Shown here piece by piece: positions 1-61,542 of a stretch of 64,000 bases of DNA. The stretch comes from Glycera tridactyla (lineage: Eukaryota): assembly GCA_965644265.1 (NCBI GenBank), contig OZ286470.1, positions 52,142,001 to 52,206,000 of the forward strand. The letters are read 5' to 3'. The notes beneath the pieces were generated by a model. That model was given only the letters and a program-made list of their open reading frames with translations. It ran no database searches and was not told the origin of the DNA. How positions within the stretch are numbered: the stretch's first letter is position 1; each line of letters starts with the position of its first letter. The position numbers and the translations under genes were made by a program.

Positions 1-934
1 GCCACCATTATATTAACTTTTAAAAGTCGATCTTTCATCGTGAGTCTTTAACCCAAACTTTCAAGTTATATACCAAGTGTGCACTAACTATCTAGACACA
101 GTGTCTTTGACTTTGTTTTATTTCCAGCTAGCTACAGTGGCCACTCCACAAGCGCCCCAGTCAATGATGGAACAAGAAAACAGATACCACATTTAGTAAG
201 GTTTGAGCTCAAACACCTGACTCTTTGGGGGTTGTAATTGTGTTATGCAATGAGGTACCTCACTTCGTCGTTCAATCATGAATAGCCTGTGTACTTGTAT
301 GTCATGAGTTGCCCAATTCTGATATTCACTGGTATTTATGTATTATGAGTTCATCCATACTCGTCATACGTGTTATCTGATTCAGATCTGAATATTCGAA
401 TTGAATTTATTTATTGAATTATGAGTATAACTGACTTTTTGTCTACCTGATACTGTGATATTCAATATTGTTTCATTCAATTTATGATCTGCCATTTACA
501 TTTAATTATGTGAGCCATATACCAATTAAAATATGTATCTACAACTCTATTTATGTGTCTCTTATACTTTTGAACCAACACTTGAGTTCCCTGTGTGAGA
601 GATGAGATGACTTTATAGATTTATGATTTCATTAGAGCTTGGCAAACAATGGGATTCAACATGTAATACTGATCGCGCTTATAACGTCTTTTAGTACAAC
701 GTATATTTTTGTGAACATCGATCCACAGGAGCAATGCCATTTATTTTGATATTGGGATAAATGGGACAAAAGCCCGGTTAGTCTGAAAACATTGCTTCCT
801 GCTGTTCTTGATAATGGGGATTTAATCAGATATAAACTTCTTGCCAAGGTTGCATCTTAAGGAAGAGGAGGGAATACTCCTACAAGCCTGTCGGATGACT
901 GGTTTTATTCCATTGTCATATTGGAAGGATTACA
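1..934 (+). mobile_element. 3' part of a giant LTR (same family as 21996-27149, opposite orientation); runs off the window start
   Basis: 1-934 is the reverse complement of ~21996-22927 (roughly 90-95% identical by eye). Homology stops exactly at ...GGATTACA (934), followed by TACTG, which is not a TGG primer-binding site, so this is a 3' or solo LTR end. Confidence 0.85.
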
Positions 935-1706
935 TACTGTTGAAAATACCATCAGGGTTGCAGCTCAGAGTGGCTCCTGTAGGAAATGGTCTTTTCATTG
1001 AGGTGGTCTCGCAAGCAGGTTCGACTGCATATATATTCTGTGCTGGTAAGTGTGAGAATGAATGATTTGAATTTCCCGCCACTATTCGCGAAAGTGTGGT
1101 TCCCCATCCCCGCCGCTAGGGGACACTATGCGCGCATCTCTCAGTCATTGGAGAATGTTCATGCTCACGCATTTTGTCCACAATCACTGATTGAGCAAGT
1201 TTTTCAGCAAATGATCGACAGATTTTCAAGATTTATGCTGTGAGGCTTCATAATATTTATTCAGGGATATGAGCTGTGTCTGCTCAATTCCGTTCAACAT
1301 ATAGTACACATATAGCTATTTATATACTTCGACGAAAGTTACAATTACTTACATAAACGTATCTGCCAAATTTACAATATCATTATGAGGAGAAAAAATA
1401 GCATGATTCCGGGAAAATAACATGGGNNNNNNNNNNNNNNNNNNNNNNNNNNNNNNNNNNNNNNNNNNNNNNNNNNNNNNNNNNNNNNNNNNNNNNNNNN
1501 NNNNNNNNNNNNNNNNNNNNNNNNNNNNNNNNNNNNNNNNNNNNNNNNNNNNNNNNNNNNNNNNNNNNNNNNNNNNNNNNNNNNNNNNNNNNNNNNNNNN
1601 NNNNNNATTATGAGTACGGTTGAGAACTGCAAAGGCATGTCGGGTTACTATCCCTTGATTGCAAGTTATTTACAAACACAAATCAGGTCTGTTCACTGTC
1701 TTTCAG

Positions 1707-1913
1707 TCACTTTTTAAATACTGGTGGACTTCCAGTATCCTTGGTGATAGATTTAATGCTATTGTAATTGGGCGCACCACGAACACTCAACCTGTTGTCA
1801 CCCATGAATGTTGATGATCTAGATATTGCTAGCATCCCGTGTGCATGACTTCTTGTCAGAGGACCTACCTGTACCACCAAGGCTTCAAATAAACGAATTT
1901 TGACATGGGGCAT
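1707..1913 (-). pseudogene. CR1/L2-type LINE ORF2 C-terminal remnant
   Basis: Translation TRSHAHGMLAISRSSTFMGDNRLSVRGAPNYNSI...VFKK matches the TRS...L.I.R..T..G.R.FSVRG...WN.L......FKK pattern at the end of L2/CR1 ORF2. Confidence 0.55.
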
Positions 1914-4900
1914 ATGAAAGATCCAAATAAAGGGGTTTGTCAGCTTGTTTGTTTGTGCTTGACGTCTTTCGGACCTTCTTGGATTATATCATACTGGGAT
2001 ATACTAAAGAACATAATGAGATTGAAACAAGAGCATGAGGCGATTTAAGTAAAAAAGTCGATCTCCAGTTGTTGTGTTACGGAAATAAGTCAACATATTC
2101 ATTCCGCCCAACCTTGGAGCAAAACGCTAGGGATAATACAGCGGATAAAATTCAGTTTTTGGAAGAAAACGATCGTTTTCGAGGAGTTGGGCTTCGGAGT
2201 CAATGTCTCGATGAATACCTGCATATGGCTAACCTGGACATGGAGCCTCTGAAAAGCTCCGTGGGAGAGCTGAGGTTTCCGGACTCATAAATATATTCAC
2301 AATCTTCCTAATGTCACGGGGCAGATCAAATCATATAGCAACATATGATACCTCATCAATAACTCGCCTCATAATCATGCTTGTATATATTCACCGTCAT
2401 CCATCACTATTTTGAAGTTATATATTATAAATCAAATTCTCGCATCGTCTTCAAGATAAACTCTGCATGAGTTCAATGATATCGACGAATTCAATTGAAG
2501 TGACGTGCCTTCAAAGTGATGTCAATATAACAAAGAAATTGTGCCCTTGTGTGTAAAAAGTTTGTGTCCGTCATTTCCTATCTAGTTTGAAAAATCTAGT
2601 AATCCCATCTATCTTATCGCGTGCTTCACTTGAGCGTAGGAAGTCATAATATCACATTGTGAATGATGGATTTAATCCTGCATCTTTATTAAACTCCATT
2701 CCATCATAAGTACCAGCTGCAGTAATTGGTCAGGGTGTTGGGAATGATTGTGAATGTGGTATTTGGTCTTGTAATGATGACAACTTCGTGCTACCCCCCT
2801 CCCTCGCGCCCTCTCTGTGAACGCGCACTACACTAAAGTCCACTGATTCAGAAGGTTTTCAATGTTATTGAAATGAAATATCATTCCGTACAAAAGAATG
2901 AGTGCCAATGGTGCTGTCAGGGACCTAATGTGACCTCAATGCACAACGTAGATCGAATCAATTCACTAATAGTTGATTTAACATCACATATGGACTCTTG
3001 ACTGTCTTTTCTCATCGTAGCAACTTGTGAGCTGATATGTGGGAGGTAGATCCTTGTCAATGTAACGCCAGCCTGAGTGAAGACATATATTTAGAACAAG
3101 AGTTGCGATAGGTTCATGAACTAGGTATGTCACCACCAAAATTGATTGAAGTGTCACAGGAATGATATGTATGCATATCNNNNNNNNNNNNNNNNNNNNN
3201 NNNNNNNNNNNNNNNNNNNNNNNNNNNNNNNNNNNNNNNNNNNNNNNNNNNNNNNNNNNNNNNNNNNNNNNNNNNNNNNNNNNNNNNNNNNNNNNNNNNN
3301 NNNNNNNNNNNNNNNNNNNNNNNNNNNNNNNNNNNNNNNNNNNNNNNNNNNNNNNNNNNNNNNNNNNNNNNNNNNNNNNNNNNNNNNNNNNNNNNNNNNN
3401 NNNNNNNNNNNNNNNNNNNNNNNNNNNNNNNNNNNNNNNNNNNNNNNNNNNNNNNNNNNNNNNNNNNNNNNNNNNNNNNNNNNNNNNNNNNNNNNNNNNN
3501 NNNGGAATTATCATATCTGACGAAGCGCCACCTTTGTTAGACGATAAATAATATATCTTCATATTCAGAAGGAGGAATTATGAATAATAAGTTCTGAAAG
3601 GAACATTGTTGAAAGCAGACTAAAGAGCAGTCGCCCTGTTCACGCTGAACGCACGAAATCGGAAGATATTTTTTTTTCTTACGAAAAGAATCTCCCATTG
3701 GTATCGACCCTGGTTGTGTTGGGAACACATCAGTACACAAGTGTTGAAGGCATATGACTGGGGCTTTTTAATACCGGTAAAGATCAAATGCTCGCCCACC
3801 ACACCTGTGCAACCCATCTGGAATCACCTACTGAAAAGGTCGTAAAGCCAGGATATAATGCAGACACGACATACGGAGCATTGTGTTCCATTGCATTCAT
3901 CGCCGGTGTTATAGGCGGATGTGTCGACGACCACACCTGAGGTCCGGGATGATGATACTTATGCGATGACTGATGGCAGTGAATTTTGGAAATAGATCAA
4001 TTCACTCATTCATCACTATATCAGTTCAACAGTTATTCAGAGTGTTGAGCTGATGACCAGTATACAGCCATCAAGTACAACCTCCACCCAGTAGGGTGCA
4101 CCATCAATCTGGTATGAGAGCAGCACACAGCGTCAACACAAACAGATGGTACACATCATCAAAAATTGATCCACATATGATAAATGCCCAGATGGCCCTG
4201 AATTTATTGTTCTTTGATTGTGTATGGATAGTTGGGGTGCATTTTGCTGTAATCAACCAATAATTGAATACCTATGTGACCACCCAGATCCCTAATATTC
4301 ACATGGGTGTTTCACACAGAAAGCCCAAGTCTAGATAGTGACACAACGTTTATATAGTGCAAACGACCTCCCAGTCTACATACTCAATAACAAGCTATAT
4401 GCCTGACCCATATTCAGCGTAATTCACATGATCTTTCAGAGATACAAAATTCAAAATGGACATGAGGTTTAGCCCAGACCTGACAACATCCACGTTGGTC
4501 GCAATCTTGGCTATCATGGACGCTATCCCTGTTGCTAGGGCCAGTCAGTAGATAGCATGGGAACTGGAGATCAGGCACCTGCCATCCACCATGTAATCAC
4601 CTTGTCTGTTTGTAAAGAACTTTATCTGAGAAAGGATTGGCCCGAAGGACGGGCAACATCCAATCATGAACAAAATAAACAAAACTAAATTAAGACAATA
4701 TTTACAGATTTGATGAGGTTATGTCAGAATGAGTCACTAGGCAGTTACTGCTATGGCTGCAGATTTGACATCAGATGCAAGAACTACAGAATAGTGAGTA
4801 CGCAGAGCTTGAGTGCTTATAAATCCACAACATCTGACATGATGTTAACCGAATAGCCTGATTCCTAGCCCAGTGCCCAGCCATACTCGGCCTGTTCAGA

Positions 4901-16234: not shown

Positions 16235-18577
16235 GAGAGTTAATCCTGACTATGTCGATGGTGTGGCAAATGTCGAGACACGCAAGCTGATGCATGCATA
16301 ATGGCATTTCTCAAATATCCAGCTATGGGTCATAGTTATATCAGTGCCCATGATTCAATGACCATCTTGGGTGACTAAAATGCGTAACTGTGACATCAAA
16401 TCAAGATATGAAATATTGTATTCACACTTGATATAGCCTATCTGATAATCAGCAGTTGCGTCTTGGATTGTCATCATACCGGCATAGAAATGAGACGTTT
16501 CGGAATAATACTTTTGTCAGCTGACCTATGTTTTTAACCGTATCTCAGACATTGATTACTTTAATTGCACCACCCACCATGATTTCAGTCTGCATGAATT
16601 TTACTAGTGGATGATCCTACTCGTACACTTTTGCTAAGTTATCCTATCAGCTCTTTCAAGAATAATGAATGGCGAGCTTGCCTTTGTTGAATAGCGCATG
16701 TAGAGAGGCGAGGCTCTTCTCCCATAACTTCGCTGTGTGAAGATTACTGTCAGGAGACATTAGACTAGATAACTCGATTACTACACCACGTTTCTTTTGT
16801 CGCTTTCAACTGGTAATGAATGCACCAAACCTCCACGAAAAGTCAACGAGAAATTCGATATCATATTCAAAAAGTCACGCTACAATGATTGATGACTGAC
16901 GGGTATGGAATATTAACGCAGCCATTGGTCAATATTCTGCTGAAGGTGCATTTCACAAGTGCATGCGTCACTCTATCGACAACAGACGACACAACAACTG
17001 GCTACCTTGGGGGCATATTATTTGCTCACTCCGATTAGCGTGCTATCTACTGTGAAGTCCATTGGAAATCACATTTTGAGGCCAGGAAACAGGCAAAATA
17101 GCATTAAGAAAATCATTCACATGCGTTTGTTTCGAATCAATGACTCAATTATTTGTAGAGGAAATGAAAACACTACAGTGGAAAATGTTCTACACTACTC
17201 CCTGTTGTACTCCATGATTAGTCCGTCCGACACCTATTGAGTATGTCAACCTATTTTTACATTATTATACTTCAATTCATAGTCAACCCAGCAAGGTCAG
17301 CCTGATGTAAAAACTGACCGGATCATCCTCTCAAGACACCTTTATGCATTCAACTTTTGTGTTGTGTGTACATATGCAATCTGAGTGGAGGTAAAATGTA
17401 TCCTGTATACTTTCCATGTTTATCTAAAATAAAGCATTCTTATTCGCATTCTTATTCTTAAATCATCTCTTCAACCCATGTGGGAATACGTGAGAGAGTC
17501 AGAAACACACATTGCCAGGAAAAGTGTACGAATAATAATTAGTCCATGAAATACAGTTCACACTGACCTTGGAAGGAAGGAATGTGGATTTAAAATCATC
17601 CCTATGGGTCACAATAGCGACAGATGGTTCTTTCACATGATTGAATGTATAGTCAACAACATACATGATAAGGCAAATATCTCGGGATGAATCTCAAAAT
17701 GGTTGACGATATGCATCAGACATGAGACATATATGGCAATGAGTGATCTAGGACATATATGATGATCACGATTACAATATCGATCATGAACCCAATGCTC
17801 GCTGTCTGCAGTGTCTTCTCGAAAGAACTAGAAGTCGATACAATTTGCGATTATGATTATGAAAACATCACTGTTTGCCTGACACATGTGTATTTGAATA
17901 GACGGTTCCACTGGAAAGGTCATGCGAATTTATCAGCCAGATTGCTAATCTCACCTGCTCCTGAATTGTAATATTGTGTGTGATTGAGGTGTAGCTGATA
18001 TGGACGAAGTCAAGATGGCTATTCAAGTTTAAACATAAGGAAACTGTGAGTAGGTCCCTATTACCATCATCGAACCACTGTCAAGAACAGATCCTACAGC
18101 ATTGATATTCTGCTACCCTATCCAGGCCATACTCCACTGACCTTCGAAGGGTCTTTTCTCCCAAAAAAGTGAATGTTAAATGTTTGCAGCTGATTCATCT
18201 CCATAGAGGTGCGACTTGTTGTCCTAGAATTGGTTACATCACTACTGTTTCTTCTGTAAAGTGATTCTTCAAGAAGTCCGATTAGGTCCCTGAACATTTA
18301 GATCTGTCTGTACCATTTCTCCCTCAAATTTAGCATTCCCCGGGCCCAAGGGCCTACGTACGAACATTATAACAACTTTTTAGACTGATAGCCTTCCCAT
18401 GCAGAAGGGAGCCGCTAGATGGGTCCCTAGTATCCCCGATGTTGACAACGCCTCACTCCCGCTGTTGCTCTGTGTATTTTTCAATGAGAATCGTTGTATC
18501 TCACATAATCCTTGTGAGATGATCCCAATTTTTTTAATTTTTTTTTTCCAGCAGGGACGGAGGGGAGGGTCTATCCA

Positions 18578-18668
18578 TTTGAGGGAGAAATTGTAAGTAC
18601 AGATCCCCAGGTTAAGTAATAAACCTGGGGGGAATCTGTCTGTACCATTTCACCCTCATATTCAGCAT
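18578..18668. repeat. DIRS internal complementary region (ICR) containing the CCCCAGGTT-AAGTAAT-AAACCTGGGG hairpin
   Basis: Lies just downstream of the YR stop. The first half repeats 21474-21526 and the second half repeats 18302-18336. Confidence 0.85.
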
Positions 18669-18820
18669 GGATATAACACGGATGGAGGGTGTAAATAGAA
18701 AAAACCCATGGAACTCCTTGTCCCTTGGGTATAATTACCTTTGTACCAAGGTACTAAAAACTAACATCCCAAGTATTCAAAGAGCCATCTATTGATATGT
18801 ACAACATGGATCAACCATTT

Positions 18821-19742
18821 CTAATTATGTTGATCAACCACAGATTGAGCCACTACTATCGGCCCCAAAGAATATGAACTCTGGGCTCGGCCACACATAT
18901 GGCGTTGATAATAAGTCGTGAAGGTGTTTCCCAACTTCCAAAATGCCGCCTGCATCAGTTCTTCCACAGAGCATGACTGATTGAATGATTTCCAGGAAGA
19001 AGAGATAGCTCTCACTTCGTGAGCTGATACCGACAACGGAAGCTCGTGTAATCTGTCCTCCAACTCATACGCCAACTTGACCAGCTGTTGAATCCAAGCA
19101 GATATTTTATCAACCCTTATCTCACTAATGGTTCCCCTGCTGGGAGGCACAAACAATCTAGCAGCACGGAAACCAGACACTCGATCTAAATATATACACA
19201 GCGCCCTCACAGGGCAAAGAAGAACTTCTGTGGACGACTGGTTCTCTGGATTCAATGCTGGAATAATAACCTCTGCACTCTTATTTGATGGCTTTCGATT
19301 CTTTGCCAAAAATCCTGGCACTGAAAGCAGCCTAACACTAGACTTGTCAGCTGTGAATTGTACAGCTTCTGGAGCTCCAGAGAAAGCGTGTATCTTGCTA
19401 CGGAGTCTGCCCCGAGGCCAGTGTTACAAGAAATACTGCTTTCCTTGTCAAATTCAAGATTCCACAAGATTCTAAAGGTTCAAAATTGGTTCCCTTCAGA
19501 TATTTGAGAATAACTGTAAGATTCCATTGTGGAATTGCTCTCTGTAACATTGGTCTCTCAAGCTCGTGGTTTTTCTGAAGTGATTTCAAGTCTCTACTAT
19601 TCAAAACTAAGCATAAAGTATGGACAAAAACTGATTGTAGAGCGTTCCTATAGCCTCTCACTGTGGCAGGTTGTAAACCAGATTCAAATGATTCTATGAA
19701 GAATTTCGCCCTTTCTGGCGCAAGGGGATTCTCTGGATCCAC
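18821..19742 (-). pseudogene. DIRS tyrosine recombinase (two ORF pieces, 19398-19742 and 18821-19321)
   Basis: Core-binding segment GLQPATVRGYRNAL and FLVTLASG(R), followed by the catalytic H-x-x-R motif (HEVR) and the Tyr nucleophile (TTYY). Confidence 0.9.
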
Positions 19743-19838
19743 CTTTTGTTTTCTGCACCAGGAAAACCATCTCTTCCATCTACTATCGTAGATGGAAGCA
19801 GAAGAGGCTCTGATGGACTGAGCGATCCGCTCGACCGC

Positions 19839-21067
19839 CTATGTCGAATGACCTTGGTGTGAGAGAGCTCCTCGGACAAACACCAAGCGGTCATCCCCAG
19901 TAATTGAGGACTGTAGTGGTACACTCTCCACCTCCCTACTATCTGAGTCAATGGATCCTGAGATACTGGCAACTCTAGTATGGTCTATAGGTAGTTCTAG
20001 TAGGTCCGGGAACCACGACTGATTTGGCCACCACGGGGCAACGCAAATCAGTGTGATTCCCAGACCTCTCAACTTGTTTATGACCTCCTTCAGCATTGCT
20101 GTTGGAGGGTATACATAAGAAACCCCGAAATTCTTCCACTCCGCAGCAACTGCATCCGACCCCCAAGCTCTCGGATCGGGGTACAGGCAAATGAAATTGG
20201 GAAGTTTGGAATTTGACAAAGTCGCCATCATATCGATTGTAGGGGAGAGATTGAATTTCATCACTATCTGATTGAATATTTCTGTGTCTAACTCCCATTC
20301 TGTTTGAATAGGTTTTCCCCTCGAAAGAGCATCAGCTATCACGTTCCTCTTCCCAGGAATGTGACGTACTTGAATTGAAAGATTCAAGTTTTCCGCTAAC
20401 ATGAAGTTTGACCATGCTAGTCCGCATAGAAGTGATGAGTGGTTGCCTCCCTGCTTGGTCAGGTAGGATACAGTTGTGGTGTTGTTTGATAAGACCATAA
20501 TCACTTGATTGGGAAGAAAGATCGAGAACTCTCGAAGAGCATGCAACACTGTTTCCAATTCCAGTGTATTGATCGATCTTCCCGACTGTGTCTTTGGCCA
20601 TTTTCCTGCACACGATCTCAGACTGTCTCCTATCACCATAAAGCTCCCCAACCAAGCAGAGAGGCATCCTTCATAATAGTGACAGTCACCTGAGGAGTTC
20701 TCAGAGGAATTCTTCTCTGTATATTGGTCTCCTGCTGCCACCATATCAAGCTGTCCAGAATAATCTTTGGAAGAGTTAGGAACATCTCCAGGGAGTCTGA
20801 AAACGTTTTCCATCTTCTTTCGAAATGGCGAACCGCAGATACTTCTGATAACTTCGATGAATTGGTATATGAAAATTCGCATCTTTTAGGTCGATGGAGA
20901 CCGTCCAGTCGTTTAAAATTACTGATTTGACCACATACATGGCGGTCTCCATCTTGAATTTGTTGTTGTGGAGGCATAAATTCAATGGTCTTAAATTGAT
21001 GACTGGATGAAAGCCTCCCGATGACTTGGCGACCAGGAACAGTTTGCAATAAAAACCCGGCTCGAGC
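19839..21067 (-). pseudogene. DIRS pol: partial RT, RNase H and N6-adenine methyltransferase-like domain
   Basis: ORFs 20776-21129 and 19839-20882 carry the motifs listed for the element. The RT YxDD region is not visible (deleted), and no gag ORF lies between the 5' ITR and RT. Confidence 0.9.
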
Positions 21068-23460
21068 ATGTAGCCCAACGCGCCGCCAACAGGAGCGTGC
21101 ACTCCCGTGCCCCCTTCAACAACTTTCAATCCGGGATATGTACAGGCAATTTTGTTCGTATTCTATCCACCATACGATATCCAAGATAAAGTGAATGATT
21201 CGTTATATCAACGATACTATATCCTAGACAATCACGAAACGCGGAAAGTCGCAGACAATGTGAAAAGCGATTTTCACGGAGCCCGGGTATTTCTCAACCG
21301 TATCCAACGACGCAAAGTTGAAAAATACACAGAGCAATAGCGGGAGTGAGGTGTTGTCAACGCCAGGAGTACTAGGGACCCATCTAGCGGCTCCCTTTTG
21401 CACGGGAGGCCTATCAGTCTAAAAAGTTGTTATAATGTTCGTATGCAGGCTCTTCGACCCGGGGAATGCTAAATTTGAGGGAGAAATGGTAAGTACAGAT
21501 CTCCAGGTTAAGTAATAAACCTGGGGAAGGGGGATCGGGGAGCTAATGAACACGCTCATCGCTATGTTGGAGAAGAAGGCTTCAGTGATAGTTGTAGTGG
21601 CGCGATGCTGACAGATCAGCCCGTCGACATCCATGCCGTGTAGGACCAAGCTATATGCTATGCAACAATGTCTACCATGAATACCCACCCATCCAACAAT
21701 CGGTCATGAATATTTGATACACTTCATGAGTCGTTATCAATGTATATTTCATGGATAATGTGCATTGACTGTCATTGCACTGATGTAGCCGATAGAGATG
21801 AAAACGCAATCAGGCACGCTAGATTGACATCAGGAACCATCAACGTAATGTCCCTGTTGAGATACATTGCACATGCTATCCCTGCATGATGACTCCGCCT
21901 ATTTCTCCCATCCAGTGCTTATGGCAGGCGTGTCATACGTATCAGTGGTTCTCACCAACACTCATGACAAAGATTCAAGAAATAGATCAAGCTAGTGTAA
22001 TCCTTCCAATATGACAATGGAATAAATCAGTCATCCGACAGGCTTGTAGGAGTATTCCCTCCTCTTCCTTAAGATGCAACCTTGGCAAGAAGTTTATATC
22101 TGATTAAATCCCCATTATCAAGAACAGCAGGAAGCAATGTTTTAGACAAACCGGGCTTTTGTCCCATTTATCCCAATATCAAAATAAATGGCATTGCTCC
22201 TGTGGATCGATGTTCACAAAAATATACGTTGTACTAAGAGATGTTATAAGCGTGATCAGCATTACATGTTGAATCTCATTGTTTGCCAAGCTCTAATGAA
22301 ATCATAAATCTATAAAGTCATCTCAATTCTCACACAGGGAACTCAAATGTTGGTTCAAAAGTATAAGAGACACATAAATAGAGTTGTAGATACATATTTC
22401 AATTTGTATATGGTTCACATAATATAATGTAAATGACAGATCATAAATTGAACGAGACAATATTGAATATCACAGTATCCGATTGACAAAAAGTCAGTTA
22501 TACTCATAATTCAATAAATAAATTCAATTTGAATATTCAGATCTGAACCAGATAACACGTATGACAAGTATGGAAGAATTCATAATACATAAATACCAGT
22601 GAATATCAGAATAATACAACTCATGATATACAAGTACACAGGCTATTCATGATTGACCGACAATGTGAGGTACCTCATTGCATAACACAATTAAAACCCC
22701 CAAAGAGTCTGGTGTTTGAGCTCAAACCTTACTGAATGTGATATCTATCTCTCTTGCTCCAACGTTGACTTGATCGCTTGTCGAGTGGCCACTGTAGCTA
22801 GCTGGAAATAAAACAAAGTCAAAGACACTGTGTCTGGATAGTTAGTGCACACTTGGTGTATAACTTGAAAGTTTGGGTTAAAGACCCACGATGAAGAATC
22901 GACTTTAAAAGTTAATATAATGGTGGCCACCTAGTTGCACATGTGAAGACGAACCGTTGATATATATTCCATGTTCAGCTAGTATATGATAGCAGCAAAA
23001 ATACTAGAACGCGTATCGTAGATGGAAGAAGGAGTATAGAGGAGTTTTCATTCCTCTTGAGAAACGTATCCTATCTCATATTGAAGTACGATCGAATCTC
23101 ACCGTATGAAGTGACTATTTCCCACACATCTCATATGAGAATAGTGTGTCAAACACACTATAGATACAGCTGGCGGAATATAGGCATATCTGCCTACAAC
23201 AGCTGTTTTCCGTATGCCAGGATGGCGACGTGGTAATGAAGTGGCCTGAAGAGTACGCACCTCTCCAGTTACGACATCTCAGACGTGCTGGTCGCTGCAA
23301 GAAGATAAAAAAAGTCTCCTACCAACTATCCAAGTATCATAAAGAAAAGTTTTGATTCACAAAGTATCTGTGAACAACTCTAAGTTTTTAATTTGTTTGT
23401 TGCGTGCACTTAGTTACTTGCAGTTGCCAGATCTATTATAGTGGGAAGGCAGGATCCCAC

Positions 23461-23466
23461 TTTATT
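23461..23466 (-). terminator. Candidate LTR poly(A) signal AATAAA
   Basis: TTTATT on +, ~450 nt downstream of the inferred TSS, next to a GTGGGA...TCCCAC stem. Confidence 0.35.
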
Positions 23467-23914
23467 CCCCACTAACTAAATAGCATAAGAATTTAAACTA
23501 CAAGTTACCATTGATCAAGTTACTAGAAATATTTCAACATTCAGTTGAAGAGATTGTCAAAAGACAATCAGCAAGTATCACCGTTGAAAAGAAATCTCAA
23601 TGCACTTAAGCCATTATCAACGGAGCAGGCACTGAGCCAACTAAGTTAATCAATCAATGAACAAGGCATCAAAATATCATCAGCTGTATCAGAGAGAGCT
23701 AAGTTCACGGGGAATGAACTAGAAAGGTGAACACACCAAGTCCTCTCTCAGTCAGCTGGGATCATGATGTAGCAGCAATACAGCGAAAAAGTTGAAGTCC
23801 AACTGTCTGCATGAAAAGAGCAAGCACGCTTTTCAAAATCAAAAATAGTCAAGTTCTCATCAAATCAAATTCAAAAATTTGAATAAATTCTAAGTTAAGA
23901 ATTCAAAATAGAGA

Positions 23915-23946
23915 AACTGATCTACTCAGAACAGGTGGTCTTTATA
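23915..23946 (-). promoter_or_regulatory. LTR core promoter: TATAAA box and TCAGTT initiator
   Basis: The minus strand reads TATAAA-GACCACCTGTTCTGAGTAGA-TCAGTT. The TATA box starts 28 nt upstream of the Inr adenine (23918). This implies U3 of ~3.2 kb and R+U5 of ~1.9 kb. Confidence 0.6.
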
Positions 23947-26900
23947 GACAGAGTCAGATGAAGATACCACTCACCGAAGCAAGGGGCAAGATCTGAAATC
24001 AACACAAGTTCCCCCTCCCAGTCAATGTGAGTATGACCTACCTAACATAGACCGGAACGCACTAAGTCACAGCTGCAGTAGCAGCGGGGTCTAAGTTCCG
24101 ATCTACCAAGTCCGTGCTAAGTTCGAATTCTAAAATTCACCAAATCCAAATTTCAACTCATTTCAAGCCATTTGGTAATGCCTAAAGTCGAAATAAGTCA
24201 TGTAATTCAAGAAATATAAGAGCGAAATGCATTTACATGCAGTCCCATATGTCACAAACCTCAAACACAAATGTGCTTACAGGGTAAGACCATGAGTAAG
24301 TCCGGTAAGCACCGTGCTAAGTTTTAGTCAACGCGCTAAGTTCGCGCTGTCAAATCACAAATAGCGATAAAGCCAGCACACTGAAGTTCTACAAAAGCAA
24401 TCCGCACATAACGAGAAATAATTCCGATCAATTATAAAGCATCTATAAGCTTTTATCTAAAGTAAAAAAGTTTCAAACTTGTTGAAAAGTGTAAAGTGGA
24501 TCGGAAGCTCAAAGTGAGGCTCATACATGTGGCGGATGGAAATCCAAAATGGCGGATTGTTTACATCTGACCGATCAGTCAGAAACAGTTGTTCATTCCA
24601 GAACGCTCAGAAAGTATCTCGGAGCTCAAATGACAGCGCATAGCAGCTTATTCATTACGGGAGCTAAACAATTACAAATACAGCAGTTTGAAGGTCTAAA
24701 ATCAATCCAAAAGAATTTTCCTTCGAAAATACAGCCCAACGTGATGTCGCAGATCAAAAATCTCAAAGTGGTCACATGTGACAGGTTGGTCTCAATACGG
24801 AGGTTTCCTAGAAAAAGTAGGTCACGGGACTTAGGGACATTACACAAGACTAAGCAAGCCTAGGACGGGTCTGTGCTTAGGATACACGGCGCTCAGGACA
24901 GAAATCAAGCCTATCAGAGTGGACCTTCTCCGAAAAAGTCTAAATTCAGGCTGAGCACATGAATCACAAGCAGGCACTACGTGTAAACAAACAAGCCTCC
25001 GTTTGTCGTCTCCCCTACTTGTCTATTACAAGTACGAGCACCAAAAACACTCCAACGGATCTTCAATTGACAGATACGACAGTTGTGGTCATGGAAATTG
25101 AAATACCATCAAGCTAGCATTTGATCGTTTACAAACAAGCTTTTGCAAGCCGAAATAGATTCAGAAAACTGAAATTGAAGCGTATTTGATAGGTCGATTA
25201 ATCGATTAATCGATCGGTTAACCGTCAAAGAATTCCAGATTTTCACACCATATGAACGACGTTAGATTATTACCTTCTCAAAAACGAGCCGTTTCAATGA
25301 AAATACGATTTTCCATAAACAATTTCACTCGAAAAAGGAAAGGTTGACTGGATCTCTATTCATATGATCAGGGAAGCTAAAGAAAACAGATCAGCTGTGT
25401 GTGCTATTTACGAAACCAGCAGCAAAGTTCACCTCAGCGGTGACCAGGTTAGTGCACATGACAGCGAGCTGCCATTGTCATACCGAGATAGGCATGTTCA
25501 TTTCAACTCAGTCCACATGGACTGGTAGAGTAGCCGGGTCTATAAACACACAGATTCAGAGAGAAAAGACACAGTCGTCTCTGCTGATATTTCAACTGAA
25601 AATGATCTTACAGAAATATTCCTTTCACACAATTATTCCTATTGGGAAATCCCGTGAATATAATTGAATTTTGAATGATTCAACCATCTAATTCACACAG
25701 AAATCCGATATATTACTTAAATGATCAAAATCTGATTCGTAGGAGCTATATCGAGACGTGTTAACAGTTCATACACACAGCTTCTCTCACCTGGAGGATT
25801 CAGTGAGTCCAAGCTTTAAATACAATTTTACAAATTCCTGCATAGCCCTGTTCCACCCATACTGGCGTACTGGACCGGGAACAATACTGGAGGAACACGG
25901 CCTAGTTCCAAGCAGTTCCACTTGTTCCAAATTCACCGGAACAGCACAGGGAATTAACAGAAACAGATAGAACTACCAATATCCACGAGAATTATCAGCT
26001 AGTCGTTTGGATCAGGACGGCATTTATGGAACAAAATCCTATCATCCAAAATGATCCAAAAACATCCAAAACATGCAAAATTTAGATTTTGACCACGTAT
26101 GCTCGAAAGACGGTACATTCAATACAAAACACGGAAGATCCGATGACATGAAATGGCATAATACTAAAAATGGCCATTGGGGAAAATATAGATATTGACT
26201 CCTAACAAAGCCTCCTAAAAGGATCCTAAAACAGTTCTAAATCTCATAAACACTCGCTAGATGTTGTAGAGCTCAGAACGGTGTATCGGAGTCCATCATA
26301 TTAGTCCAAGGCAGCGATCTTGGAGAAGCAAGATGTTCTCTGCTCCCGACTCCGTCAGCTCCGGTGCGTACTCTTCAGGACAGAATTTCCAAGTGCCAGA
26401 ATTCCTGTCTGGAACACTTTTATGTAACCGTCCTGAAGAGCCAGCAAAGAGCGGGAAAAAGGAGCGGGAAGAGCGATGTCAAGCTCCCCAAGTCAGCTAC
26501 CTCGAATGTATTCACTCGAGACTTTTCTAGATCAATTTCAGAAGATTTACTGAGAAACCATGTACATTCCACGTACATTTCAAATCACTTTCCTCCTGCG
26601 CGACTCCGAGCTCCTCCTGCTCAGGGAGTCGTTCACTATACTGTGTGATCAACGTTGTTGGCAAAAAACCGTCCGATAAACGGCCTATACCTCGGACTAA
26701 CAATTTTGCCTCAAAAGATACATTTCCCATCTTCGGGATATCTTTAGCCCTACTACAGATACGTATCATGTGAAAATATGGCCTTCCTACGTCCATTATT
26801 CATGGAGATATCGCATTTTCACTGTTTCACCCTAGAAACACTGCAAGCTGGGCACCCACCGAGAACGGCGAGTCTACCGCGTGTAACTCGAACTCTAGTT

Positions 26901-28247
26901 GCCACACCAACAACCAGATAGGTGAAACAACTAATATTAGAAAGCTAACAGGATCACTACTGTTTTTCAACTAATAGAAGTGAAAATATCCCATGCTTCT
27001 AGAGTAGAAAGGAATTTATACCCTTCTTGTAGCGTAAAACTAGTGCCGCGGGCCTCAAAAGAGGAATTCCGCGAATTCCGCTACCAGAAATCCCTATATT
27101 GTTCATGTTATTCTAACAAACGTCACGACATCAAAAACGTGGCGTTACACTAGAATGTAATGAATCGCTAACAATTTCTGTGGCAGAAAGAGCAAAGATA
27201 GTCTCAACGATCACCATAGACCCCTTTCGAGAAGAAATGTTGTCATTATAACGGAGGTGATGTCTAAGATTGAGAAGTTTAACATTTAGCGCAACCATTC
27301 TCATCGATATGACGACACCGACTGATTGCCCGTAATAGTCCATGAGCCAAAGTGGGGTTTTCTGGTATTTCAGATGGTATTTGTTTGGACTGCCTTGCAT
27401 TTTTTTGGGTGTCTTTTGCCCAGGTAGCTTCGCCAGCACGGTAACCTGAGGCTAGGCACTTGCATCTTCATGCTTTTGGTGGTGGTGGAAAGTCCAGAAT
27501 TCAAAAAATTATATCTGCCCCCGTGAGACATCAATAACACAGTAAACACAACCAAACCGCATTACAATTTGCCATTCACAGATAGTGAATTGTTCTTGAA
27601 ATACAATTACTGGTAGCAAATAATAGGGGAAAAAGATTTTTTTTCATCAATTTGACAAAAGTTTGAGGAAGTTCCTTTCACCGACATCCATAATAGTGTG
27701 CATGGACAACCGGAATAATGTTGAATTTTGCTAATTTCATCATCAAAACATGATGGAACTATAGGCATCAGAAGTGGCATGGTTACCACACTAGCTCATA
27801 CTGCTGGCCATGTCCTATGCCATGTTTCGTAACACTCATATCGGAATAGGGTGTTGAGTAAGATTTAGCATAGTTGTCCATCCATATGACGATTTAATCA
27901 TCGAAACAAAGGTTCACTCACCAGGTGAAAGTATCGTCAGGTACGTATACTTGTCTCTTTGCTCAATAATGGAAACGACTACTTGAATAGGGATATAAGT
28001 GCACAATGGAATCAATGAGCATCGAACATTTATGTGTTGATACTAATCGCCACTAACCAATCTCCACATGAAGACATGATGACCAGGTCATACTTGAGTC
28101 TTCTGTACGTCATTCCGCTTGCGTTCGGTGAACAATAGCCCGATCCAGCAGAGTCTAAGATCATTTTGGACGAAATATTTATTCATCATGGTGGCGGATG
28201 TATGTCATGATCTACCTGGCTATGGCGATGTAAGAACACATCCAGCT

Positions 28248-56375: not shown

Positions 56376-56781
56376 GTGTAGGTTTGAAAGAGTCTGTGTC
56401 TTTCTAACCTTTGTTAGTCCGTGAGTGGGGTGTTGGGATCTGTTCATATGAAACTGCCTTTCTTTCCCACTTAGAATTTCACTCCTAGCTCAATCAACTT
56501 ACAATCATAAATTAATCAAGCCACGTGTGAAGAAAATGTCAGGCGTCCGTCGGAGAGTGTCATCCTACGATTAAGATCAATTGTAGGATGAACCGCCAGG
56601 GGTTCTGTTGTATTTATCATCTGGTTTTATCGGTGTCAGCTCAACAGTAATAAATATGTTGTGACGAGGCAAAGAGCTGATACCTTTTGAACCAGAGGCA
56701 AATATGGAGCCCTCAAAAATGGTTTGAGGCTCCCCAGTGTTTTGTTGATCCCAAATGGGCCCTAAGAACTGAAATTCCCAT

Positions 56782-57644
56782 TTATTTTGATTTGATTTTA
56801 CCAGTTTCCCGATAAAATTTCCAGTTTTTGCATCCCTTCTCTGGTGGGGTTCTGTCCTTAGTGTTCAGGCCCAAAGGGAGCATAGTTCTAAATCTGTGGA
56901 TCCACTTAAATTCAATCTGGAGCCTCAGTGTGACACTATACTCCCTTTTTGGGTGGACAAAAATGAAGTCCACAACGTGGATCTTCATATCTCTGAGGCC
57001 TCGGTGGTCAGCTGATTGGAAATGTCTGCTTACATCTTCTACCAGGTTTTTCCTCCCGATTGCTCCAGAGTGTACTCCAAATCTCTGGTTTATGCTATTC
57101 TCAGTTTGACCGACATATTGTTTGGAGCATTTCTTGCAAGTGATGCAGTATATCAGGTTACTGCTCTGGCAAGTGATATTCTTTTCTGCCTCATATTCCC
57201 GTCCAGTGATTGTGCTGGTGATTCGGCCTGTCTTGTCCAAAAGTGGGCAGAACTTGCACTTTATGTTGCTACACTTATTCGAGTGTTTGCTACATGGGTG
57301 TCGGCCTTTCACTGGACTGATTTGTGGGACTTTGGCCCTCATTAAGAGATCTCTGAGGTTTGGCGCCCTCCTATTCCCAAAAATTAGTTTGGTTTCCGCT
57401 AGGTGCTTGGTTGCCTGGGCTCTCCTTAGTAGATCCCAATTTTTCCTAATAATATTCTGGAATTTCACTGAATTTGGGTTAAAAGTAGTGACAAGAAAAA
57501 TGGATTCATTTGTATTGTCGCTTGCTTCTGTGTCCAAACTCTTGAGTCTCTGTATGTTCAGGAGGTCCAATTGGTCCCTTTCAGATGCATATATGAAAGC
57601 CTTTCTCAGAATGTCAATCGGGAAACCCCTCCTCATGAAATGAC
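56782..57644 (-). pseudogene. Inverted partial PLE ORF: RT thumb, Cys linker and GIY-YIG endonuclease (open frame)
   Basis: The ORF 56782-57669 translation is nearly identical to 60393-61340 and is uninterrupted in this copy. Confidence 0.9.
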
Positions 57645-57653
57645 GCAGGTTCT

Positions 57654-60600
57654 GTGAGAAGCCAACCAATGTGTAACAATGTGAGACACCATGCCTCCAA
57701 CCCAGGGTATATGGGATCCCTCTCTGCTAACCCAACCCCCCTTGGAAGATATCGTTACTTGAATATCATTGATTCTGAAACTTATTATTGGGCCAAAAAG
57801 GGTGGAATCCAGGAACCCACCTCCCCAGGGTTTGAAAAGAAGGCCTGGCCTCTCAATGTTGGAAATGATCATGAATTCCCACCACTACCATCGCATGAAC
57901 ATGAACCGTTGGGAAAACACCATGAGACACACGTTGTTGCACTTACACCTCCCTGTGTGACGTTATCACGTTTTTTACATGTGATTTGCCATTGTGAGTC
58001 CAGGGATTTCTGTCATTGTGCCCCCGAAGGAGCCAACATTAATAACAATGCTGGCGGATCCAAAGAACAAGAAAAAGAAAAGGACACCAAACCACTCGAA
58101 AAAAAAACGCTGGCAAATCTAACCAGAGTATCTCATCCTATTTTGTGAAAGAAGGGAGTCAGATACATGGCACTGCCGTAGAATGTGATATCCCACCAGG
58201 CCGGAGCTCCCCAAAAGACTCTGATGAAAGCCTTTCTGATTCTGAATCCTCAGCGACCCTCACTCCCTCTTACTCTAGAATTACAAGGAACTCATCTAGA
58301 AACTTGCAGGTGACAGTGTCGTTGAATGGCCTCTCAGATTCTAAATGCAGAAATCCACCAAAACCACTAAAAAAGTTCAGGAAGGGCAAGGAATCCAGAC
58401 TGATACCACAGATAAGTCCGCCAACCAGATAGACACCCAAATTTTGGAAAATATGTCCACTTTGATCGTTGGTTCAACTCAATCCCGGGACTCAGTAGAC
58501 CAGATGTATCTTGTTCCACCCAAACTCGTTATCCAACCTAAAATGGTTGATGCTTGCAGTCAAACCAACCCCCCATTTTCTACCCTGGTAGTGGACCCAC
58601 ATCAGGCTACTCGTGAGATTGACATCCCTGACAAGGCTGTGAAGGCGATTCGTGAAACCAGGAACGGCCTAGCTGACCGCAAAAAGAACCACCAGTTGGC
58701 CAACCACCTCCGAAAACTAGAAATGGACGATGTGGTACCACCTTTCGCATAAGGACTCCACCATTGGCTGGCGTGGATGCCAGATGACATTGACTTCAAA
58801 AGGAAGTTTTACAACTTCAAACGCAGTCAAGGACGCGAGTCCATGAAATGGGTGGCAGATGAACTGGATTTGGTAGGCAATGAGCATGCGGACATAGCAA
58901 AACTTTCCATGCGCTCAGTAGAACACCACTATGAGAGAGCTAATATTGATTCAGATGATTGCAAAGCCTTGATTGCACGCCAGGTCCATCGTTCATCAGG
59001 ACAACGTGAGACCCAGCTGAAAAAAGTCGAGGCCAAATTCAGAGACACAGCTCCTTCAGTGCATTTATGAATCTTCATTCCAGGGGTATAGTCAATCTTT
59101 CCAACTTCACTCTTAAAGACTACCATCGATCTTTATTGGAGAAAGGTCTAACATTCTGCCCCACTCCTAGGGAACCAGACATGGGAGATCTGAGATGAGA
59201 CCTTGATACCTTTCACAGAAACACCAAATTAAAAGCACATTTTGGGAAAGGTCAAAATAAGAGTGAAGCTTGGAAGGACAAGCACATTTTGGGAAAGGTC
59301 AAAATAAGAGTGAAGCTTGCAGGAAACACTTAGGACCATTAAGAGAACTAATTCAGGAACAGTGGTTCCAGTTGGTTCCTACCACAGTGCCTATATACCC
59401 CCTATGGACACAAAGATTTCACCAACAAATCGACTTGGCAACCTGATGATTGCCCTATGATGTTAGAAAGCATGATTCATGAGTTGACCAAGTTCAAATG
59501 CACTGCACCCTTGAGGCAAAATCTCTCCATACAGGAGAGGAAAGAAATCAAGGAATTGCAACAGGACCCCTCCATGATCATCAAAAAGGCTGACAAGGGA
59601 TCCAGCATTGTTATTATGAGCAGAGAAAATTATCTAGCAGAAGGTTATCGCCAGTCGTCGGACTCTAATTTTTATGAGAAGTCTGACAACCTTACTACTG
59701 CTCATAATTTGAAGGTGAAGTCTCTTGTTGATGAACTAGTGGAATTGGGAGAACTAGGCCTAGAGGCCTCAAAATACCTAGTGTTTGAGGAGCCACGAAC
59801 GGCCCAGTTCTATTTACTACCCAAAATCCACAAAAAGCTTGACAATCCCCCAGGACGTCCTATAGTGTCAGCTTATGAATGCCTTACGGAAAGAATCTCA
59901 GCATTTGTTGATTTTTTCCTGAAACCATTCATGCCGAAAAGTAGGTCTTTTCTCAGAGATACTACCGATTTCCTCCTAGAAATACAGGAGTTGGATGTGG
60001 TCCCGGCTGATAGCATCTTAGCCACTCTAGATGTAACCAGCCTATATACAAACATACCAATTGAGGAAGAAATCAACAGTGTCCGCAGGTTTCTATCTAT
60101 CCACAGATCAGGCCCATGCCACCCAAAGAACGAATCTCTGTGCAACTGTTAGAATTTACCCTGAAATGCAACAACTTTCAGTTTAATGAGGAGAATTTCC
60201 TTCAGGTAGGAGGCACTGCAATGGGCACCAGGGTTGCACCGAGTCTTGCATTTTCATGGCTGATTTAGAGGAGAATCATGTATATAACTTTGAGCATCAG
60301 CCACTGTTCTACAAGAGATTCCTGAATGACATCATTCTGGTCTGGACTCAGGGGAGTGATAAACTAGATAAGTTCGTCAACCACATGAACCAGTGTCACC
60401 CAACTATAAAATACTACGTGTCAGAGGAATTTGCACAAACAATAGTGATTTCGTCAAACACAGCATGGTACTCTTATGTCATTTCATGAGGAGGGGTTTC
60501 CCGATTGACATTCTGAGAAAGGCTTTCATATATGCATCTGAAAGGGACCAATTGGACCTCCTGAACATACAGAGACCCAAGAGTTTGGACACAGAAGCAA

Positions 60601-61340
60601 GCGACAATACAAATGAATCCATTTTTCTTGTCACTACTTTTAACCCAAATTCAGTGAAATTCCAGAATATTATTAGGAAAAATTGGGATCTACTAAGGAG
60701 AGCCCAGGCAACCAAGCTCCTAGTGGAAACCAAACTAATTTTTGGAAATAGGAGGGCACCAAACCTCAGAGATCTCTTAATGAGGGCCAAAGTCCCACAA
60801 ATCAGTCCAGTGAAGGGCCGACACCCATGTAGCTAACACTCAAATAAGTGTAGCAACATGAAGTGCGAGTTCTGTCCACTTTTAGACAAGACAGGCCGAA
60901 TCACCAGCACAATCACTGGACGGGAATATGAGGCAGAAAAGAATATCACTTGCCAGAGCAGTAACCTGATATACTGCATCACTTGCAAGAAATGCTCCAA
61001 ACAATATGTCGGTCAAACTGGGAATAGCATAAACCAGAGATTTGGAGCACACTCTGGAGCAATCGGGAGGAAAAACCTGGTAGAAGATGTAAGCAGACAT
61101 TCCCAATCAGCTGACCACCGAGGCCTCAGATATATGAAGATCCACGTTGTGGACTTCATTTTTGTCCACCCAAAAAAGGAGTATAGTGTCACACTGAGGC
61201 TCCCAATTGAATTTAACTGGATCCACAGATTGAGAACTATGCTCCCTTTGGGCCTGAACACTAAGGACAGAACCCCACCAGAGAAGGGATGCAAAAACTG
61301 GAAATTTTATCGGGAAACTGGTGAAATCAAATCAAAATAA
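57654..61340 (+). pseudogene. Main PLE ORF (long N-terminal region, RT, GIY-YIG), broken by frameshifts, stops, a 47-bp duplication (59233-59318) and a deletion near 60415
   Basis: Consecutive ORF pieces 57654-58148, 58145-58432, 58345-58752, 58777-59070, 59457-60152, 60256-60489, 60393-60836 and 60858-61340. RT motif C is degenerate (RFLND). Confidence 0.85.
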
Positions 61341-61460
61341 ATGGGAATTTCAGTTCTTAGGGCCCATTTGGGATCAACAAAACACTGGGGGAGCCTCAAA
61401 CCATTTTTGAGGGCTGCATATTTGCCTCTCGTTCAGGAGGTATCAGCTCTTTGCCTCGTC

Positions 61461-61465
<5 letters not shown>

Positions 61466-61542
<77 letters not shown>
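61466..61542. repeat. (TA)n(GA)n microsatellite at the right PLE boundary
   Basis: Read directly. Confidence 0.95.

Follow-up and report, generated by a model that had tools for sequence, protein, structure and literature searches.

The 64,000-nucleotide (nt) stretch of Glycera tridactyla DNA analyzed here (contig OZ286470.1, hereafter the window) contains at 21996-27149 a 5,154-bp solo long terminal repeat (LTR) of a young and very abundant 17-kb Ty3/Gypsy retrotransposon family, termed F1. The giant LTR of this family very probably carries an intron of about 3 kb within its R region, and insertions that lack exactly this intron occur in the genome. Intron loss is a textbook mark of retrotransposition. 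We propose, with moderate confidence in the mechanism as a whole, that the F1 intron would be spliced from the front copy of the LTR in the element RNA and restored from the unspliced rear copy during reverse transcription.

The family behind the solo LTR

The unit opens with TGTAATCC, closes with GCGTTACA and is bordered on either side by CTAG, confirming the solo LTR with target site duplication (TSD) reported in a preliminary description of this DNA. A second family member noted there, at positions 1-934, was found to be inverted relative to the first, 94.0% identical to it and terminated at the identical base. The far end of this second copy had been predicted to read TACT-TGTAAC, and in the neighboring genome stretch (L035:3795) it reads TACT-TGTAACGC. 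The two solo LTRs face each other across 21 kb, and the one at 21996-27149 most likely arose by LTR-LTR recombination. The view that the LTR has no coding capacity also held: no frame of at least 75 amino acids was open in all 45 copies compared (the best was open in 38), and neither a 3-base periodicity nor a Pfam or Rfam match was found, so that these checks revealed no hidden open reading frame (ORF) or known RNA inside it.

A DNA search in which 29 of 11,365 candidates were scored returned 25 near-full copies at 95-100%, the window copy among them, and nine of the 25 were solos with a 4-bp TSD. Across the genome, the terminal 20 nt of the LTR had 6,434 exact matches, against none for the reversed control, and the junction with the primer-binding site (PBS) had 2,914. 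In four copies, LTR pairs flanked gag-pol, which lies opposite to the window plus strand. The gag product matched Pfam PNMA (E 2.7e-11, with a weak PDB match to PNMA2, E 0.008) and zf-CCHC, and pol carried RVT_1, RT_RNaseH, Integrase_H2C2 and rve in that order; a protease-like DTG motif was visible without a Pfam match. The PBS lies 2 nt past the LTR, its core matching the 3′ end of a genomic tRNA-Pro gene, and 4-bp TSDs were present on pairs, arrays and solos. Paired copies around gag-pol, a PBS and a Gypsy-like family with giant LTRs had all been anticipated and were all observed; at the place of the polypurine tract, ahead of the 3′ LTR, the sequence is invariant and reads CCCCCGGGAGCA, with purines at 7 of 12 positions.

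Among the LTR ends listed for contig C1, 25 of the 30 pairs were spaced 11,742-11,887 bp apart, which gives an element of about 17.0 kb (two 5.17-kb LTRs plus 6.65 kb). Four further pairs were spaced about 12.6 kb apart, the size seen with an insert of about 810 bp, and one 13.7 kb. The LTRs (5.15-5.18 kb) make up 61% of the element, and the internal region of about 6.65 kb (up to 8.2 kb with inserts) holds gag and pol only: the 16 internal regions read contained no ORF beyond gag-pol and no env ORF past pol, about 270 bp separating the pol stop from the 3′ LTR. These results contradict the earlier suggestion of full-length elements above 20 kb with extra ORFs, since such lengths were reached only as tandem arrays. 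Divergence between the LTRs of one element ranged from 0.04 to 1.5%, and F1 is therefore young.

The first 100 LTR ends listed for C1 (its first 31.7 Mb) resolved into 30 pairs, 6 arrays and 22 singles, and 4 of the 13 singles fetched were TSD-bearing solos. Arrays were about as frequent as such solos, as expected if unequal exchange generates both, and solos were few for an LTR this long. We read eight arrays (two of them LTR-only), in which the outer TSD was exact in six and had one mismatch in two; those with three and four LTRs spanned 29-41 kb. Internal regions diverged by 0-0.36% within an array and by 2.5-5.6% between arrays, and the middle LTR was a 3′-then-5′ chimera in 5 of the 8, as unequal exchange predicts. 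These observations point to arrays being self-duplications of one unit, with unequal exchange after insertion indicated in those five.

Several side observations concern the family as a whole. An element of 740-815 bp with no evident terminal inverted repeat occupies varying sites inside many F1 internal regions. The nearest pol relatives are 13 sequences at 66-76% identity on contigs of 4-14 kb, followed by others at about 40-53%, which indicates a distinct clade in other datasets. One F1 solo LTR is nested in the internal region of an element of the related family F3 (L195). At L199:1480-1540, about 40 nt resembling a tRNA adjoin an LTR end, a stretch much longer than the usual PBS and possibly a trace of read-through into the primer tRNA. 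Within gag, a strand-switch joint (L116:6737-6769) was present in all four runs in which the splice junction described below recurred, and is either a hairpin or an artefact. The genome also holds a long tandem array (G000:C35) with a period of about 2.6 kb and five tRNA-Pro-like matches per unit, all on a single strand. Targeting of microsatellites, suggested by 12 of 78 outer flanks against a background of 8-9%, was judged unconvincing.

Probable RNA layout and the intron in R

An intact promoter had been attributed to the LTR by the preliminary description, which gave no coordinates and probably meant the plus-strand TATAAA at 25541 with ACAGTC 32 nt further on. This motif is antisense to gag-pol, occurs in 31 of 69 LTRs (a set that includes LTR pairs from single elements) and is missing from the sister family F4, so that the promoter was confirmed only in part. 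The working promoter is most likely on the minus strand, with the TATA-like box CATAAAAG located 30 nt ahead of an initiator GGCACTT at LTR base 754, and F4 has the same initiator at the same spacing from a TATAAAA. Another sense-strand TATA, at LTR 128, was set aside as restricted to an old subfamily.

At the other end of the RNA, ATTAAA was present at LTR 4759 in 67 of the 69 LTRs, the distance from the poly(A) hexamer to the LTR end is 407-411 nt in F1, F2 and F4, and one copy carries a tract of 27 A at LTR 4783. This tract is found in the 5′ LTR only, so the copy is not a plain first-jump product, a reading that we dropped. A rival poly(A) site at about 3833 was rejected: its hexamer occurs in only 38 of the 69 LTRs, insertions of class B (described below) also arose in subfamilies without it, and the search that found the tract at 4783 yielded no tailed copies near 3806. 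Genomic fossils and motif conservation together suggest that the RNA spans LTR 754 to about 4783, with a U3 of 753 nt, an R of about 4,030 nt and a U5 of about 386 nt. R is likely to be about 4 kb long with the intron wholly inside, which would account for an LTR of 5 kb.

The intron itself was identified in public contigs, where a joint on a young LTR skips 2,977 nt with GT..AG ends (junction 891|3869). The exact junction was present in contigs of five of eight runs (X1, X2, X3, X7 and X8, from two studies), having recurred in 4 of 4 runs beyond the initial set, and was not seen in X5, X11 and X13, all thinly covered. None of the five junction-bearing runs is on record as RNA, they provide contigs only, and the short side of the joint measures 23-30 nt. 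We infer that they are RNA because contigs totaling 48-84 Mb and an LTR depth of only tens to hundreds do not fit whole-genome DNA with more than 6,400 copies. The donor is of the GTRAGT type, with GT in 68 of the 69 LTRs, and the acceptor of the TTCTTGCAG type, with a pyrimidine tract and GCAG in all 69. The window copy is atypical in both its donor, which is GC, and its poly(A) hexamer, which is ATTGAA. We consider the anatomy set out here to be very probably correct.

Intron and exon 2 also differ in how they vary. Four-gamete incompatibility reached 0.39 in the intron middle (LTR 1900-2900), which is conserved yet shuffled, versus 0.09 in exon 2 (LTR 3900-4750, window ~22400-23260), which is hypervariable between subfamilies, with up to 23% diversity per 50 nt.

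Spliced insertions and a predicted pairing switch

Genomic copies of the exon-1 end without the following G gave 30 matches, 20 of which were the exact junction; compared with 6,565 unspliced LTRs, the spliced share of F1 LTRs is 0.3%. These 20 spliced LTRs and one further LTR represent 13 independent insertions. Four of them (class A) are cleanly spliced, with an LTR of 2.19 kb, and eight (class B) have the layout 1-3833 + 754-891 + exon 2; the remaining insertion reads 1-3700 + 841-891 + exon 2. In trees, 12 insertions (13 LTRs) were scattered among normal subfamilies, and spliced insertions therefore reflect repeated events.

In the nine insertions that are not clean, a spliced front is fused to an unspliced rear. 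The class-B joint falls at a 7-mer that occurs only at LTR 754 and 3827; interpretation of this ACTTGGA repeat as a relic or TSD was ruled out, as it is absent from F4. The two exon-1 copies within a class-B LTR differed at 0-2 of 131 nt in all seven LTRs tested (the eighth was unscored), and in six of the seven no equally close exon 1 was found among 45 other LTRs. Class B thus joins a spliced front stopping at 754 to an unspliced rear from the same element or a very close relative, and such errors are one route to an intron that ends in an exon-1 copy. In one class-B element, the 3.06-kb unit 754-3833 is itself tandemly repeated several times (G000:C40:5.92-5.96 Mb; L114, L121, L122).

A folding scan of 67 windows along the LTR gave z below -2 in both F1 and F4 for three of them, the strongest of which spans the start site. 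The corresponding U3 hairpin (z -5.3 and -6.2) has 12 pairs, with 36 of 36 cells paired in three sequences; three pairs changed on both sides, a count equaled in 16 of 500 shuffles. The exon-1 arm of this hairpin is also perfectly complementary to a segment 35-50 nt into exon 2. The resulting helix is the longest perfect inverted match of the LTR in four of four F1 copies (15-17 bp) and in F4 (17 bp), with three double changes in F4, and 759 of 765 cells pair across 45 LTRs. Diversity in the exon-2 arm is 1.2%, versus 6.8% and 19.1% in its flanks. When natural spliced copies were folded from the start site, the probability of the helix between the exons was 1.0 in three of three; once 60 nt of U3 were included, the U3 hairpin prevailed in two of three (1.0 and 0.75, with 0.24 in the third). 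Because U3 occurs in the rear RNA copy alone, different folds are predicted for the two LTRs despite their identical sequence, the exon-1 arm acting as a predicted switch between U3 and exon 2.

Three tRNA-Pro-primed relatives with giant LTRs were identified, namely, F2 (6.2-6.3 kb), F3 (4.24 kb) and F4 (5.25 kb). F4 retains the promoter, donor, acceptor and hexamer positions, and the intron is the best-conserved part between F1 and F4 (71% overall, up to 80%). The F3 LTR has no blastn match to that of F1, yet it contains its own GT-AG intron of 2,267 nt. Ten of the first 100 F3 matches listed (106 in total) were spliced and correspond to seven insertions, which do not form one clade, although three cluster. 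F3 also has a hairpin around its TATA and a 17-bp helix between exons 1 and 2 that includes G-U pairs; in F2, no exon helix was prominent among the perfect inverted matches.

Table 1. Features of the solo LTRs in the window, with examples of the F1 insert at other loci
Feature	Position	Strand	Basis or remark
Solo LTR, Gypsy family F1	21996..27149	- (element sense)	PBS and gag-pol orientation in paired copies
TSD CTAG, left	21992..21995	.	sequence
TSD CTAG, right	27150..27153	.	sequence
U3 (753 nt in the reference copy)	26395..27149	-	start site from 8 class-B insertions
U3 arm, partner of the exon-1 arm in the hairpin straddling the start site	26429..26440	-	folding
TATA-like box CATAAAAG at -30 (candidate)	26417..26424	-	TATAAAA at the equivalent F4 position
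Exon 1, start of R; initiator GGCACTT, A = 26394	26258..26394	-	class-B insertions
Exon-1 arm, two mutually exclusive partners (U3 arm or exon-2 arm)	26363..26382	-	folding
Antisense TATAAA + ACAGTC, probably the promoter of the preliminary description	25541..25576	+	not conserved
Intron in R (2,977 nt in the reference copy)	23295..26257	-	donor GC here; pyrimidine tract + CAG in 69/69
Exon-2 arm, 17-nt perfect complement of the exon-1 arm	23245..23261	-	complement search
Exon-2 part of R (915 nt common to both RNA ends after splicing)	22379..23294	-	
Poly(A) hexamer (ATTGAA here)	22398..22403	-	cleavage ~22379
U5, about 386 nt	21996..22378	-	copy with poly(A) tract
Second F1 solo LTR, 3′ end	1..934	+	TACT on both sides; ATTAAA at 525-530
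740-815-bp insert, examples	L031:6053-6863, L032:6683-7423, L033 (two copies), L037/L039		

Retention of the intron and its significance

In the mechanism that we propose, the front RNA copy, being without U3, would pair its exon-1 arm with the exon-2 arm, while in the rear copy U3 would capture the exon-1 arm in a local hairpin; the switch would in this way distinguish two identical LTRs and favor splicing at the front only. Minus-strand DNA would copy U5 and enter the exon 2 shared by both RNA ends, where reverse transcriptase would meet the 17-bp stem 35-50 nt before the junction. Transfer to the rear copy would usually occur within exon 2, and reading of the intron and U3 from there would produce a full LTR. 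Rare overshoots would leave the spliced copies of classes A and B. A wider claim, that a clade of animal Gypsy elements routinely replicates from a spliced genome and regrows a 3-kb intron in each cycle through a U3-dependent switch, is offered tentatively, as a possibility that we doubt slightly more than we believe.

A number of points weigh against this mechanism. The data consist of contigs and include no full-length RNA reads; in addition to the missing RNA record of the junction-bearing runs, contig depth is a poor gauge of level, and X5, the only run recorded as RNA (10 contigs), showed no joint. The poly(A) site comes from a single copy, with its tract confined to the 5′ LTR. A recombination scan conducted to locate the jump showed no breakpoint excess in exon 2, and the spliced leader would still measure 1.9 kb and contain 49 ATGs. 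Addition of U3 flipped the predicted pairing in only two of three copies, and the covariation support comes from one F4 element. No spliced copy was found among 14 in F2, in a search that could not have detected an exon 1 carrying A at -2. Within a single TSD, one F3 element has a 3′ LTR that is spliced and a 5′ LTR that is not, which hints that unspliced fronts are also used, or at conversion. Finally, as in maize, an LTR-only RNA (here of 1.05 kb) could be the main source of the junction.

The most serious alternative holds that unspliced RNA is the normal genome and that the spliced form is either a gag-pol mRNA or a short LTR-only non-coding RNA. Spliced genomic copies would then be packaging accidents, and the helices would act on splicing, export or the choice of poly(A) site instead of on the jump. 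The low share of spliced F1 LTRs fits this explanation, as do the coverage of the intron by contigs, an LTR depth exceeding the internal depth, the discordant F3 element and the strong conservation of the intron between F1 and F4, as would be expected of a packaging or enhancer signal. In maize, moreover, 77% of the transcripts of LTR retrotransposons are LTR-contained, according to a 2026 preprint (PMC13192763). On the other hand, the 13 F1 and 7 F3 insertions indicate that spliced fronts were repeatedly copied and integrated, and an intronic signal would still be carried by the rear copy. Spliced RNA can in principle rebuild a full LTR via exon 2, and few spliced copies therefore do not mean few spliced templates. 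Overall, we regard this alternative as unlikely, though by no means negligible.

The same helices could also serve a different purpose. The exon-1 arm of the front copy might pair with the exon-2 arm of the rear copy and bring the RNA ends together for strand transfer, irrespective of splicing at the front, in which case the U3 hairpin would merely stop the rear exon-1 arm from competing. Pairing between 5′ and 3′ regions aids transfer in Ty1, and the nine aberrant landings are next to exon 2, at 35 and 168 nt ahead of the acceptor. However, in spliced RNA a local partner lies only about 150 nt away and is the predicted winner (probability 1.0 in the folded fragment), and circularization alone does not explain unspliced rear copies. 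Such end joining is improbable as the explanation in its own right, but it is compatible with intron restoration from the rear copy and does not exclude it.

Two further readings can be dealt with briefly. The element above 20 kb of the preliminary description, resembling Burro or Ogre, with extra ORFs and a plus-strand TATA promoter, gains from an LTR size within the Ogre range of 1.9-6.5 kb (PMC6431247) and from arrays of 29-41 kb, but it is very improbable: it is refuted for the 16 internal regions read, which span about 6.6 kb (at most 8.2 kb with inserts) and hold gag-pol only, the arrays are self-duplicated, and the plus-strand TATA is antisense and unconserved. An origin of the junction in a DNA deletion variant or in faulty assembly might be suggested by a guessed run type and by the presence of the junction in genomic DNA, but is barely credible, since one GT..AG cut recurs in unrelated subfamilies, F3 has its own exact GT..AG loss, and a junction present in 0.3% of LTRs would hardly be assembled from a DNA run at the observed depths.

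The rest of the window contains several additional features. A Penelope-like element occupies 56650-61473; its inverted repeats measure 996 bp (97%), and its ORF at 56782-57726 encodes a GIY-YIG domain. Probably a DNA transposon, the 3.2-kb unit at 18290-21512 has terminal inverted repeats of 195 bp (88%), and its minus-strand ORFs are broken and gave no Pfam match. A GGT/GCT-rich array followed by three 105-bp repeats (29873-31275) may be a mucin-like exon; at 36931-37781, 425 bp are duplicated in tandem.

LTR introns are already known. In maize, LTR retrotransposons contain canonical LTR introns with a mean of 1,303 bp and produce spliced LTR-contained transcripts, which the authors present as the first evidence for LTR introns relevant to element biology (PMC13192763). 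Canonical LTR introns, TATA-type promoters and young elements are common to maize and F1. In contrast to the plant case, where the transcripts were read as long non-coding RNA, F1 combines an animal host with a 2,977-nt intron, spliced genomic fossils and a predicted pairing switch; the term "strand transfer" is absent from the main text of the preprint, and the parts covered leave intron survival unaccounted for (PMC13192763). Penelope-like elements also have an intron just past the start, mostly spliced and kept through transposition, but this intron measures 75 bp, the elements are not of the LTR-integrase type, and retention was explained by selection for expression rather than by restoration from another copy (PMC2377424).

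Long R regions have precedents as well. In tobacco Tto1, transfer works with 125 bp of redundancy and without reaching the 5′ end, so that F1 would share with it both a long R and an early jump (PMC3061985), and in rice Retrosat2 the LTR measures 3.2 kb and its R, as predicted from motifs, about 2 kb (PMC3485330). Both differ from F1, with its probable R of about 4 kb, in that the passages covered describe no natural LTR intron, the word "intron" being absent from the Retrosat2 text; retroviral R measures 15-250 nt (PMC12789967). Ogre and Burro are likewise Ty3/Gypsy elements with multi-kilobase LTRs, but the internal region is 11-13 kb with one or two extra ORFs in Ogre and up to 25 kb in Burro, compared with an internal 6.65 kb in F1 (PMC6431247). 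Internal introns are known in Ogre and EVADE (PMC12786077). Plant tandem arrays show the same LTR-internal-LTR-internal-LTR order within one TSD; their origin was left open in the sections covered, whereas chimeric middle LTRs in five of eight F1 arrays point to unequal exchange (PMC11899658). A literature search that placed subscription papers and supplements outside its scope, and that also missed PMC13192763, turned up no description of exon pairing switched by U3 or of an intron being repaired from the rear LTR.

Thousands of young F1 copies hold a consensus 3-kb intron, and the fossils map the start, end and splice of the RNA. If most of the LTRs counted are full length, the family occupies roughly 50 Mb (2-3%) of the genome, and every copy could in principle provide a promoter, a splice site and a poly(A) site. 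How two identical LTRs come to be treated differently is an old question, and a short, covarying pairing switch provides a concrete and testable answer as to how they might be told apart. A long R with an intron, as the cause of giant LTRs, may extend to other long-LTR families, including those with LTR introns in maize. If the proposed mechanism is true, R would be free to reach 4 kb, giant LTRs would be explained without extra genes, and F1 would constitute an exception to the rule that retro-copying erases spliced introns.

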